Shown: positions 18,576 to 40,560 of the stretch, in pieces
Layout: each line of letters starts with the position of its first letter
Numbering within the stretch: position 1 is the first letter of the stretch
Assembly (NCBI GenBank): GCA_003990765.1
Contig: RBNJ01000092.1
Span: forward strand, 1 to 42,356
Length of the DNA: 42,356 bases
Origin: Jimgerdemannia flammicorona
Lineage: Eukaryota
Direction of reading: 5' to 3'
Notes under the pieces: model-generated
Databases searched by the model: none
The model's input: only the letters and a program-made list of their open reading frames with translations
Told to the model about the DNA's origin: nothing
Position numbers and translations under genes: made by a program

Positions 18576-20629
18576 TGTAAGGGCACAACCTCCAAGCCAC
18601 CAAAACTACATATCACCCTCTGAACAAGTCACTGAAATCACACACAACCTCTGAACAAATCTGGAAATCATCTGCTTGATCACAAAGCTGAGTCAAACCG
18701 AAGTCACAGTGTACAAAGCTAAGTCAATACAAAGTCACAGAACACAAGATTTACACAAATGGAATCTTACCAATCAGGATAAAATGCATATATACCGAGC
18801 ACCAAGACGTGTTGAATCAGAGAACCAAAACAAATAACAACCACAACTTCCAAATACACAAACATGACCACTAAGATCTATGCCCATATTTGCGCTGACA
18901 TTTGGAATGCCATTGTCAATAGAGCCACATCCCCTCTGCCCCTCATGAATATCCATAGCCTAGCACCCCTCTACTTTGTGGAAGCCCGATGGAATACTCT
19001 GAACATGCTTAGTGAGGCCCACTGAATCAGACAAATCTCAAGCTACTACTAGATTGGCTGCCTTCTGGAAGACATGATCAAACACCACCACAATACAGAC
19101 ATCACCCAGATGTCTCAACACCAGAAGCTCATCGCCCGCAAACATCGAGAACTCTTCTACGAGTATAGCACTGTTATTCCCTGCCTCCGAGTTACCACAG
19201 CTGAAATGATTACTACCCTGTCTTATGGCCAAATCGATGACATGATACAAGAACTCAACCACAAGTATGTCAAGTATATCGAAACCACAGACAGAACCTT
19301 CCCACATCCCAATGATCATATTTTACAAATGCCCCAAGTTGGATATGCCATGAAGGATATCTATAATATAATCTACTTCGATGAAGATAAAGCAGAAGAC
19401 AATAATCCCTCTGATGCCAATATGATCTCTAGTCAAGGATCCCTGCCAACTCTGATCACACTGCCAACCTTGCTGATGAACTTACAACAATTCATAACAG
19501 CATATGAGACTTATTGGGACAATGACCACTGGCATAAATACCAACCTGCATTCACCCCCAATTACTTCAACTATAACAATGAGACTGGAGAATACAACCT
19601 GTACCTCCAGACAACCCTCGAGATTGAACCAACCACTCCACCACCTGAGTATGAGTGATATGAACCACAGCCACCAGCTTACTACAACCCTGCAACTCAT
19701 AGTGTCATAATCTATAGAAGGTATGCAGATAGTGAAACCAATGAAAGCAAAGATGATGCACCCCTCCTTCACCCACTAACACCTTATCTAGCATATGAGA
19801 CAGATGATGCCATCTTGTGGAATGGAGATGAAGTTCCAATGTATTATTACCTCAGCAAACAAGGAGAAGTAATCCACAAACTACTTTTTCTGGATGACTA
19901 CTTCATCAGAGATGATACAATCAATGGTGATGTTATTGAGGACTACCCAGACAGTGCCTAAACCATAAATAGCCTAGCAGTCATAGTATAGTTAGAATAG
20001 CCTTGTATGATGTGACTGTGAACTGATTCAGCAGTCAGATGATCTCTTGATATGTCAGATCACACGTGTACTACATGACTGCATTCCGACTCAGCAAAGC
20101 ACTTAGTGCTATATCCATATTCAGTATAGTCCAGATAGCCCCTCACTAGTATAAATACCCCCTCCCCCAGACCTCAGAATCTCAGACTCGAATACATAAA
20201 AATATTCCTGAATACTTCCCCACAATATTCCTTCACACAACTACTCCTAGTGTAAGCAATATCATAAATAGCAAATAAACCTATTCAAATAATCCACAAA
20301 CCACTCTTAAGTAAATCTGCTCCCCATTAGGTCCCATTCCTAACCCTGTTACGAAATTTCCTAATTGGGTATTGTCTGCAGCGATATGCCAATTCAACTA
20401 AGCTAATCTTAGTTTCTTGAACTTCCTGAAATATGGAAAATCCAAACATCCAGAACTAGTCCGAAAAAAGGACTTTGGTTGAGACATCAACCTGAACTTA
20501 AAATCAATAAGCATAGAGGACATACTCCATACAAAATTGATCTTGACCATAAGAAAACAGTCTTCTAGAATATCCAGAAAACCTTTCCAGAACTACATAA
20601 CAGTTACCCTAAAAAGCAACCCTCTTATA
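18576..20629 (+). mobile_element. Family-A element (younger copy, 2054 bp), probable solo LTR
   Basis: TGTAAG...CTCTTATA termini, 5-bp TSD CTAGT (18571-18575, 20630-20634), TATAAATA at ~20150 and AATAAA at ~20274. Confidence 0.9.
18864..19961 (+). pseudogene. Accessory ORF-A inside the family-A element, 365 codons, three C->T stops, no frameshift
   Basis: CAAACATG at 18864 is in frame to TAA at 19959-19961. The stops at 19023 (TGA) and 19050 (TAG) read CAA and CAG in the other copy; the third stop is TGA at 19656. It includes track ORF 19074-19658. Confidence 0.85.
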
Positions 20630-22080
20630 CTAGTTCTGGATATTCAGGATTTTTTATATTTCAGGAAGTAGACCAACTTAGTTGAATTGATATATCACTA
20701 TAGACAATGCCTAATTAGAAAATTTTGTGATATGGTTAGGAGTAGGATCAAATGAAGTTCAAATTTACTTAAAAGTAGTTTATAGATTATTAAATAGATT
20801 TATTTACTATTTATAATATTGCTATACTAGGAGTAGTTGTAAAGAGATATTGTGGGGAAATATTTAGAATTGTTTTTGTCTATTTGAGTCTGAGATTCAG
20901 AGGTCTGTAGGAGGGGATATTTATACTAATGAGAGGCTATCTAGACTAGGCTAAATATAGATATAGTACTTAGTACCTCACTGAGTTGGAATATAGTCAT
21001 ATAGTATAAGTATAAACTGACATATTAAGAGATCATCTAACTGCTAAGTCAGTATACAGTTATATTATATAAGGCTAATTTAACTATACTAATAACTGCT
21101 AAGTTATCTATGAATTTAGATACTATCTAGATAGTCTTTGATGATATCACTATTGATGATATCATCTCTGATGAAGTAGTCATCTAGAAAGAGTAGTTCT
21201 TAGATTACTTCTCTCTGTTTACTTAGATAATAATATATTAGAATCTCATTATTATCCTACAGGATAGTATTATCTGTCTCATATACTAGATATAGAGTTG
21301 ATGAGTGAAGGAGGAGTGCATTGACTTCACTTTCATCAGATTTGCTATCTATATACCTTCTATAGATTATAGTACTATGTGTTGCTGAGTTGTAGTAAGC
21401 TAGTAACTGTTGTTCATATTACTCATACTTGAGTAATGGAGTTGTTGGTTCAATTTTGAGAGTTGTCTAGAGATATAGGTTATATTCTCCAGTCTCTTCA
21501 TTATAGTTGAAGTAATTAGAAGTAAATACAGATTGGTACTCATACTAGTAGTTATTGTCCTAATAGATCTTATAGGTAGTTATGAACTATTATAAGTTCA
21601 TTGGTAAGATTGATAGAGTGATCAGAGTTGGCAGAGATCTTTGGCTTGAGGTCATATTGATATTGAAGGGATCATTATCTTCTGCTTCATCATCATCAAA
21701 CCAGATTATATCATAGATGTCCTTCATGGTATATCCAACTTGGAGCATTTGCAGGATGTGGTCATCAGGGTATGGAAAGGTTCTATCTGTAGTTTGAATG
21801 TACTTGATATACTTGTGATTGAATTCTTATACTATATCATCAATTTGGCCATAGGACAGGGTAGTAACCATTTCAGCAGTAGTAACTTAGAGGTGAGAAA
21901 TAAAGGTATTATACTTATAGAAGAGTTCTCAGTATTTACAAGTAATGAGTTTCTAGTATTGAGATATCTGGATAATATCTGTGTCATAGTGGTGTTCAAC
22001 TATATCTTTCAGGAGATGACTGATCTGATAGTAGCTTGATATTTGTCCAATTTGGTGAACTTCATTAAGCATATTCAGGG

Positions 22081-38858: not shown

Positions 38859-38969
38859 ATAGGCAAATTTGTCTACAAAAATTATTATTTTATTAAATAT
38901 AATATCTGCAAATATATTTAGTATAAAATCTCTCTTTTTATATATACATATTATAGTATAAATATATAT

Positions 38970-40560
38970 TGTTATGTAGTAATTGCCGAGTCCTTCAAAT
39001 ATATCAGATTCTCTCCAAGGTATATCTTTTAGACTAACCTCAAGTTTGTTATAAGCAAGTTCTTATTGGAGTATCTTCCCAAGGTCTTATAGTCCTCAAA
39101 CTTCTTATCTTTAAACTGTCTTATTATCTTTTAGATTACTTACATGGAATTGAGGGTAAGTGAACTGGACTGACTTTATTTCAAAGGAAATAAGAGGAGT
39201 ATTTATACAAAATATAATTCAATAGTTGCTAATTTATAAAGCTAAATATAAATTTCAATAACCAAATAAAATACTGGAATATAAAAAACTATAGTTGTCT
39301 GAACAAATGGTTGCACAAGTTTAGGATGCCAGTAGAATTTTGGTAGTATGGAAAAAGGATACCAGAAGAATTTCAAGTTATGCAAGATCAGAATGCTAGA
39401 AGAATGACAGTTATACAGAAAAAGGATGCTGGTAGAATCTGGTAATTATCAAGAACTTAGAGCAGTAAGTTCAGAACTATGGAGGCTTCATCTTTATCAC
39501 TATTAAGACCAGAGATCAGAGACAGAATATCTTAAAAAGAGATGAGGTTGGTGAATATTTATCCATCTCATTACATAGATTGTGCATTTCACATATATCA
39601 TGTGGAATGACATCATTACTAATGACATCATCATATTTGGTAGTAGGGAGAACAAGGAGATCTGGGGCTCTCCAATCTATGACATTCTCTTTCACAAAAT
39701 AAGGAACAAATATGAGGTCTTGGAGAGGTCTAATCTGGATACTGAAGTCTTAGAATGCTGAGATCAATCTCTATATAAATTGATCTGAGTTATCCTGGAG
39801 GATGGGATATCAGAAGTCTTCTACTTCATCACTATTAAGAGTGATAGTGAACTGAGCCTCTGTGGCCACTATGGCCTCTAGTGCATTGATATAGTGAGCT
39901 GACAGTTTCTTGAAGTCTGAGATCCTAGTATACTCTAAGTTGGAAATCAATTATGATACATTCTGAAAGATCTGATGAATCTTCTTTACTATCCTTATTT
40001 CATATATATATATTCATGGAGGTGATATCTTGAATTACCTAAGGACTGGCCTGAGGGAACTCTTAGTAGAGGAGGTTTCCTATTTTATACTCCTGCTATA
40101 TCTAAAGATATTCAATAGTGATGGTGATCCTTGTTTCCATTTCATAATAGTAGAGGATATAATGATAGGGGTCACCAGTGCCTAGGTTAATACTAGGAGT
40201 CCTTCTTGTATAGGTCTCTATGGCTCTTCTGATGTCTTGGAATATTCTATCCTAAACTGAGAGACCTTGGTGATTCCTGGACCTTGAGGTTTGGCAAGTA
40301 GCAGGCATTTTGATTGTAGTAAGTCTTTAGAATTATTTCTGTAAACTTTGTTTGGATTGCTACTACTATAGTTTCTTGATCTTTCTTTTATATTTCTTAA
40401 GATATCTGTCTTGTAGTCACAATGACTCATGATTGGTCATCATTGCTCATCTTATAGTCTGGATAAGTCATGCTGTATGATCTTCCTATGCTCTGATCTG
40501 GTGGCTTATAAAAAAATGCTGTCTCCTGTACTGATATCATTATTCTGAGGTCACCATTAT
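38970..40560 (-). mobile_element. 3' portion of a family-C LTR retroelement (3' LTR 38970-39684, PPT ~39685-39695, internal remnant)
   Basis: GTGAAAGAGAA|TGTCA junction on minus, TATAAATA at ~39200, LTR end matching 1-186 and degenerate ~33-nt repeats at 39322-39445. The internal boundary is approximate. Confidence 0.75.
39685..40308 (-). pseudogene. Accessory ORF-C, homologous to ORF-A/ORF3; the frame continues into the LTR
   Basis: CAAAATG at 40308. Translation DRIFQDIRRAIET...EYL*I*QEYKIGNLLY*EFPQASP*VIQDITSMN / YEIRIVKKIHQIFQNVS*LISNLEYTRISDFKKLSAHYINAL, with one frameshift in an (AT)n run at ~40002-40013. Confidence 0.72.

Follow-up and report, generated by a model that had tools for sequence, protein, structure and literature searches.

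Three decayed accessory genes of Ty3/Gypsy retrotransposons, two of them embedded in long terminal repeats, in a mutated repeat field of Jimgerdemannia flammicorona

The DNA analysed here is a stretch of 42,356 nt from the fungus Jimgerdemannia flammicorona (contig RBNJ01000092.1, assembly GCA_003990765.1), referred to below as the window. Its G+C content is ~50% at positions 2000-18000 and 29-43% at 18000-42356, and the latter region contains nested, decayed retroelements. A first-pass annotation, made from the sequence alone, had singled out three decayed open reading frames (ORFs) in this repeat field, here called ORF A, ORF B and ORF C, and had proposed that they represent one uncharacterised accessory gene family shared by three different families of long terminal repeat (LTR) retroelements. 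Translation of the window reproduced the peptides and coordinates given for all three. We show that the ORFs are real accessory genes of three Ty3/Gypsy lineages, and that they are probably, as judged from profile comparisons, members of one family.

Repeat copies in the field shared 78-86% raw identity, a value that rose to 96-99.6% once transitions were ignored by purine/pyrimidine recoding. Repeat-induced point mutation (RIP, C-to-T) produces transitions only, and the jump in identity on transition-blind recoding is its signature. The peptides proposed for the three ORFs had been obtained by reverting C-to-T changes. Most of the reverted residues agree with those of intact relatives (for example, the glutamines in A and B and the arginine in the YKrN motif); several positions restored as glutamine in ORF C turned out to be tryptophan.

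ORF A is carried by a solo LTR of 2054 bp (A-type LTR copy I, 18576-20629, plus strand) with TG..(C>T)A ends, which read TGTAAGGG... and ...CCCTCTTATA. This LTR is bounded by a 5-bp target-site duplication, CTAGT/CTAGT, and its insertion site lies within a second A-type LTR. ORF A copy 1 (18864-19961, plus strand; 365 codons, three RIP-type stops) corresponds to LTR positions 289-1386, its ATG following 288 nt of LTR sequence. The second LTR, copy II (18394-25037, minus strand), is also a solo LTR, with a 5-bp target-site duplication of TTTTC/TTTTC on the minus strand. It was broken by copy I and by an element of the long interspersed nuclear element (LINE) type, and it survives as pieces at 18394-18575, 20630-22082 and 24623-25037. 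ORF A copy 2 is present in it from residue 43 onward (21116-22090, minus strand), and the N-terminal 49 codons of this copy (24769-24623, minus strand) were split off by the LINE insertion. ORF A is found three times in the window when these detached codons are counted, a multiplicity that the first-pass annotation had missed. Of a third A-type LTR, copy III (27095-27279, plus strand), only the first 185 bp are left, the remainder having been cut by the element that carries ORF B.

The two long copies of ORF A allowed a coding test based on transversions, which RIP cannot fake; selection at non-transition sites had been named in advance as a check on the proposal. Transversions between copy 1 and copy 2 were distributed over codon positions 1/2/3 as 3/2/18 (chi-square p 2.8e-5), and 14 of the 23 were synonymous, against an expectation of 13.6% (binomial p 1.8e-7). 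The 964 ORF sites contained no gap column, compared with 18 gap columns in 496 aligned sites downstream. The excess of synonymous third-position transversions, together with the lack of insertions or deletions, indicates that ORF A was under purifying selection while the LTR copies diverged. An intact relative was also found: one match among 322 candidates, P0001 (247 aa), was 61% identical to ORF A and covered its C-terminal two thirds.

ORF B belongs to a complete Ty3/Gypsy element of 11.6 kb (element B, 27280-38843, minus strand), which encodes gag with a zinc knuckle, protease, dUTPase, reverse transcriptase, RNase H and integrase, followed by ORF B. All of these lie on the minus strand. 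A domain search placed the protease at ~34310-34002; the dUTPase (32638-32267) lies between it and the reverse transcriptase (31562-31116), and the RNase H (30891-30515) is followed by an integrase without a chromodomain (30440-29367). Repeat comparison set the LTRs at 27280-28810 and 36394-38843. The pol reading frame ends in ..LKIYLSPHHESEN, followed by a TGA at 29369-29367. ORF B (28868-29383, minus strand; 171 codons, five RIP-type stops) starts with an ATG at 29383, 14 nt ahead of the pol stop and in a different frame, and its first 17 nt are shared with the end of the integrase gene. Its own stop (28870-28868) lies ~57 nt short of the 3' LTR. Five of 24 candidates matched, and they include intact relatives with the same start and end (P0002 of 171 aa and P0003 of 172 aa). 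An exhaustive HMMER pass with B over 1.84 billion cluster representatives returned five proteins at E≤0.001, all of the same small family.

Element B is flanked by TATAT on one side and TTTTG on the other and lacks a target-site duplication. These mismatched flanks suggest that it is the product of recombination between two copies. Such a recombination of two element B copies would explain why the A-type LTR cut at 27279 does not resume past 38843. The right LTR of element B contains a ~1-kb insertion (37584-38572) bracketed by a ~139-bp duplication of B-LTR sequence; this insertion opens with 414 bp derived from the 3' end of an A-type LTR (37582-38000, minus strand). A 161-bp tandem duplication is also present in the B LTR (27791-28251).

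ORF C (39457-40308, minus strand) lies in a C-type LTR at 38935-40561 (minus strand), the 3' end of which, near 38935, is approximate. The ORF ancestrally comprised ~271 codons, ending in a stop at 39459-39457. It now contains many stops, and its frame is broken twice, in a TA run that follows ..SMN and again close to the end. Searches with its second part gave six matches among 19 candidates, including P0010, an intact protein of 271 aa with the same MPA.. start. The window has no pol upstream of ORF C. A metagenome scan with this single protein, P0010, identified one locus among 63 pattern matches, the intact 2109-bp contig L001, in which the order is the end of RNase H and an integrase (H2C2 and rve domains), a spacer of ~300 nt, a polypurine tract, the LTR start and the ATG of ORF C. 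The polypurine tract, AGGAGGAAGA, is at 1727-1736, the LTR begins with TGTAATGG at 1737 (TGTAATGGTGACC), and the ATG is at 1989, 252 nt after the LTR start; in the window's copy it lies ~253 nt inside the LTR. Comparison with L001 also set the start of the C-type LTR of the window at 40561 (TATAATGGTGACC, from TGTAATGGTGACC).

In an ordinary blastn comparison, the similarity between L001 and the window started exactly at the TG (L001 1739, equivalent to window position 40559); a blast of L001 after purine/pyrimidine recoding at loose settings gave only noise. The onset of similarity at the TG after the polypurine tract indicated that L001 position 1737 is the start of a 3' LTR. ORF C therefore lies wholly within the LTR, beyond the polypurine tract and in the same orientation as pol, presumably in the unique 3' (U3) region, and the copy in the window is a solo LTR or a 5' LTR. 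For ORF A, orientation in the sense of pol is suggested by analogy with ORF C, as the two have near-identical placements (252-253 versus 288 nt into the LTR). Within the first 330 nt of L001 the frame shifts near 170-180, between the end of RNase H and the integrase, which corresponds to a break of the pol frame in this copy or in its assembly. A further, less mutated C-type LTR sequence, the 3' part, is present at 1-225 (plus strand) and ends at the window edge; it matches 39158-38932 (minus strand) with 84% raw identity and 97% when transitions are ignored.

Collectively, the data presented show that A, B and C are genuine additional ORFs of three Ty3/Gypsy lineages, now lying in a repeat field wrecked by RIP. 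Each of them has intact relatives, located on short public contigs, and ORF A shows coding constraint. All three lie inside an LTR element and outside gag and pol: ORF B between the pol stop and the 3' LTR, ORFs A and C inside the LTR. The proposal of accessory genes in three different element families therefore holds and is sharpened, since two of the three ORFs turned out to be LTR-embedded and not, as had gone unnoticed, part of an internal region. We found it extremely improbable that the ORFs are chance open frames in AT-rich repeats. RIP transitions alone do keep frames aligned between copies, coding or not, but they account neither for intact relatives of the same length on other contigs nor for the synonymous third-position transversions and absence of indels in ORF A. 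The intact relatives are full-length for B and C; for A, the relative covers the C-terminal two thirds.

Over 342 aa, the integrase of L001 shares 34% identity with that of element B, so that the B and C lineages are truly different. In agreement with the first-pass description of the three LTR types as not alignable, blastn found no similarity between them except for the 414-bp A-type fragment inserted in the right LTR of element B. Because ORFs A and C are inside the LTR, each LTR of these lineages carries a copy of the gene, solo LTRs included.

The proteins are acidic, with isoelectric points of 4.1-4.7. As had been claimed, the acidity resides in the C-terminal regions: the last 51-71 residues carry a net charge of ~-16 to -17 in B and C, and the first ~120-130 residues are near neutral, the Arg-rich N terminus of C having a net charge of +8 over its first 40 residues. 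The tails are rich in D and E with interspersed W, Y, F and L, and extend over ~40 residues in B, ~70 to 140 in C and ~230 in A. The N-terminal region was predicted, at low confidence, to be helical. No transmembrane segment was found in A, B, C or P0001, the maximum 19-residue Kyte-Doolittle mean being ≤1.06 (hydropathy only, without a signal-peptide program). On this sequence criterion the three proteins appear not to be env-like, as had been anticipated.

Similarity searches left the proteins without a named relative, and "uncharacterised" remains the right description. No Pfam family matched B, C or P0001 at E≤10, and the five representatives of B mentioned above were its only ones among 1.84 billion proteins. 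DUF6869 was the only Pfam match to A and was rejected (E 0.26, far below its cut-off). In sequence-profile searches of the PDB with B and C, the lowest E-value was 0.28. AlphaFold2 models of B and C had mean confidence scores (pLDDT) of 51.7 and 36.5, too poor for a fold assignment, and a Foldseek search of the PDB with the B model gave no match at E≤0.001 (best E 1.5, template modelling score ≤0.26). For C, the ESM Atlas returned only matches at noise level (best 0.83), the Atlas model itself having a pLDDT of 0.35.

These searches bear directly on one functional proposal. From a motif recognised by eye, the first-pass annotation had suggested a nucleic-acid-binding regulator akin to the helical N-terminal domain of DUF1016/YhcG, with a possible helix-turn-helix resemblance. 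The proposal found no support: A, B, C and P0001 had no such Pfam match at E≤10, the best PDB profile match stayed at E 0.28, and Foldseek gave no match at E≤0.001, although on a low-confidence model. We regard a relationship to DUF1016 as very unlikely.

Whether A, B and C form a single family was addressed by comparing family profiles. Using hhalign, A and B aligned with P 0.003-0.013 and A and C with P 0.012-0.021, each over 103 columns and in the register proposed by the first-pass annotation. Of the column-shuffled controls, 1/60 and 0/50 scored as high as the real A-B comparison and 0/60 and 1/50 as high as the A-C one, and reversed alignments scored 15-17 against 23-24 observed. Each family hidden Markov model (HMM) was also scanned against the whole window translated in six frames, with 60 shuffled profiles as control. 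The two best non-self matches of the C profile were ORF A (score 7.7, independent E-value 0.013) and ORF B (score 1.0); those of the B profile were both copies of ORF A (scores 1.8 and 1.6), and the A profile matched ORF B in register (score 1.1). No shuffled profile out of 60 reached the score for C to A, C to B or A to B, and two of 60 did so for B to A.

The methods agreed on a register in which the Y-x-I-G motifs of A, B and C are aligned and RKHRELF (A), DRLYTLY (B) and KKIHQVF (C) follow 31-34 residues on. MAFFT aligned the three families co-linearly from the N terminus, and a 38-residue insertion in C reconciled the two registers found between B and C. The order of helices was alike in the low-confidence AlphaFold2 models of B and C, a long helix carrying Y-x-I-G in both (residues 34-69 in B, 47-83 in C). 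The probable common architecture is a co-linear, helical N-terminal domain of ~130-140 aa followed by an acidic, aromatic-rich and probably disordered tail of 40-230 residues. Its probable shared motifs are a conserved proline in a P-x-P-like motif, Y-x-I-G-x-x-L, and K/R-h-H/Y-x-h-F/Y ~32 residues later.

Several results weigh against a common origin. The raw decayed peptides were similar only at chance level: in Smith-Waterman comparisons, shuffled sequences scored at least as high as the observed ones in 123/500 (A-B), 33/500 (A-C) and 269/500 (B-C) cases. The direct hhalign comparison of B with C was not significant (P 0.07-0.45), and the alignment with P 0.07-0.08 was in a different register; column shuffles reached the B-C score in 3/60 cases. 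In the six-frame scan, A to C (10/60 shuffles) and B to C (14/60) were not significant. Adding B to the A profile, in a merged profile assembled by hand, lowered its score against C from 22.4 to 18.0. The hhalign probabilities were only 1-10%, the profiles were shallow (effective sequence number, Neff, 1.2-1.8), and part of the N-terminal domain of A is known from mutated copies alone.

These data could also be read as three unrelated, lineage-specific ORFs, captured or formed de novo at the 3' ends of three Gypsy lineages and resembling each other by chance and composition. Chance-level raw scores, the non-significant B-C comparison, the poorer merged profile, the hhalign probabilities of at most 10% and the position of ORF B outside the LTR, with A and C inside, are all in line with separate origins. 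On such a view, however, it would be unexpected that the best non-self matches of the C and B profiles in the window are the ORFs of the other families, in frame and in one register (0-2 of 60 shuffles), that two independent aligners give the same co-linear alignment, and that A and C start at nearly equal distances from the LTR edge (289 versus 253 nt). We therefore consider separate origins the less likely explanation. A single family is probable, not proven: the weakly significant profile matches and their consistent register uphold this part of the first-pass proposal, and the chance-level raw peptides and the B-C comparison do not.

As a whole, the observations are best explained by genuine accessory genes, probably of one fast-evolving family, which would act as regulators of their elements; we assign this reading a probability of roughly 0.6. 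Three points temper it. The function is suggested by composition. No DNA- or RNA-binding motif was found, and the Pfam, PDB and fold searches were without a match. Within the window no full-length A-type element was seen, and the sense of ORF A relative to pol depends on the comparison with C. With these qualifications, the proteins are likely to be regulatory.

As to the kind of regulator, we tentatively favour a transactivator or regulator of the element's own LTR. The two parts of the proteins, a helical domain and an acidic tail with hydrophobic residues, correspond to the build of acidic transcriptional activators, and the proposal is made by analogy with these. A sense ORF located 3' of pol or in U3 belongs to the full-length transcript, and translation of the protein would use the 3' part of this RNA. 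Expression would call for a subgenomic or spliced RNA, or for a promoter inside the LTR, within its initial 250-290 nt. ORF B has a third possibility, re-initiation coupled to termination where its AUG and the UGA of pol overlap (17 nt). The helical domain would then dock on the LTR DNA of the element, on its RNA or on a host factor, and the acidic tail would activate transcription in the manner of the acidic tails found in viral transactivators. Tas of foamy viruses, for example, has an acidic activation region.

Two other functions were weighed against the transactivator proposal. Most fungal Gypsy elements are chromoviruses, with integrases that carry a chromodomain. Searched at E≤1, neither the element B integrase nor the L001 integrase had a Chromo match, and the accessory protein could instead be an integration-targeting or chromatin-tethering factor that replaces the chromodomain, its tail binding histones or a chromatin protein and its helical domain binding the integrase. 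The acidic tails would suit such a role, and so would the 17-nt overlap of ORF B with the end of the integrase gene, where frameshifting might fuse the B protein to the integrase. In A and C no such fusion is possible, because a polypurine tract and the LTR edge separate the ORF from pol. We consider tethering somewhat less plausible than transactivation.

The other function is that of an anti-silencing factor directed against RIP, quelling or heterochromatin, by analogy to VANC of plants. It would fit a host that hypermutates its repeats, as seen from the copies that are 96-99.6% identical in transition-blind comparison and 78-86% identical in raw sequence. Every copy in the window is nevertheless heavily mutated, and any protection has failed here; moreover, the Pfam and PDB searches gave no similarity to known silencing suppressors. 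An anti-silencing role thus appears doubtful, and less probable than tethering.

A broader, speculative scenario is that fungal Ty3/Gypsy elements include "complex" lineages with an ancient, fast-evolving regulatory gene that in some of them was moved into U3. Each LTR, even a solo one that outlasts its element, would then be a self-contained gene for a transactivator or anti-silencing factor able to act in trans on every copy of the family. This scenario is rather unlikely as it stands.

Retroviral accessory genes that lie in or overlap the U3 of the 3' LTR include sag of mouse mammary tumour virus (MMTV), nef of human immunodeficiency virus and bel/tas of foamy viruses. Similarly to these, ORF C is a sense ORF located 3' of pol in the LTR, as seen in L001; an ORF in this position is carried in the 3'-terminal part of the genomic RNA and is duplicated in both LTRs. 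Unlike the retroviral genes, the ORFs described here are from a fungal host, their elements have no env, and no similarity in sequence or fold was found in the Pfam, PDB and Foldseek searches. In our literature search, the term "LTR-encoded" was applied mainly to the MMTV superantigen.

Additional ORFs of LTR retrotransposons are, according to the passages cited, well described in plants, and the fungal case is brtn of Boty, an antisense ORF in the internal region (PMC7264820, PMC8365987, PMC4227169); Boty elements that carry brtn occur in Botrytis and Sclerotinia (PMC7264820, PMC8365987). Like brtn and the plant ORFs as described there, the genes reported here include a conserved extra ORF of unassigned function between pol and the 3' LTR of a Ty3/Gypsy element, a situation found in fungi and plants. 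In contrast to brtn and most of the plant cases cited, which are antisense, B and C are on the sense strand of pol. A and C also differ from brtn, which was compared by its description only, in lying inside the LTR and not in the internal region. Our literature search turned up neither a fungal retrotransposon described as having an ORF on the sense strand and embedded in its LTR nor an account of the A/B/C family; the Botrytis ORFs in Figure S1 of PMC8365987 may be related.

Fungal Ty3/Gypsy elements with a dUTPase have been reported (Novikova and Blinov 2008, cited in PMC2774666), and element B resembles them, as far as the citing passage describes them, in having a dUTPase between protease and reverse transcriptase. 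The cited passage does not mention an extra 3' ORF, which element B possesses, and element B is without a chromodomain. In bdelloid rotifers, additional ORFs are described as common to diverse retroelement types (PMC5408684). The presence of one accessory ORF family across LTR-element lineages of a single genome would be comparable, in a different host kingdom; here, too, the likeness is to the published description only.

Although LTR retrotransposons are known to carry extra ORFs, a function has been established for almost none of these, and few examples come from fungi. In the window, three lineages of one genome have an ORF 3' of pol, its sense orientation being shown for B and C, and two of these ORFs are LTR-embedded, an arrangement otherwise linked to complex retroviruses. 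If A, B and C are one family, the gene would be an old and retained part of the element life cycle. With the protein encoded in the LTR, solo LTRs would moreover not be inert and could go on providing a factor that acts in trans. Since the proteins are short and natural intact versions exist, their activity on LTR-driven reporters is directly testable.

The LINE-type element that interrupts copy II of the A-type LTR is a non-LTR retroelement (L1, 22083-24622, plus strand) inserted in ORF A. It has an RVT_1 domain at 22475-23122, a poly(A) tail and a target-site duplication of ~12 bp (AAGCATGTTCAG-like), and it is not a member of the accessory gene family. Together with a second copy at 25187-26837 (minus strand) it forms a pair in inverted orientation. 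Both copies have an extreme GC skew, of +0.35 to +0.55 over 22-25 kb and of -0.38 to -0.46 over 25-27 kb. An inverted duplication of 208 bp, at 24853-25060 and 27072-27279, contains an LTR end and its flank.

A further Gypsy fragment at 41450-42150 (plus strand) comprises the end of an RNase H and the H2C2 domain of an integrase (41778-41951). This fragment ends in a long T tract (42150-42356), and a similar T tract occurs at 758-866. In the gene-bearing part of the window, which has ordinary composition, a 66-bp tandem repeat is present at 11848-12071, its copies being ~94% identical.

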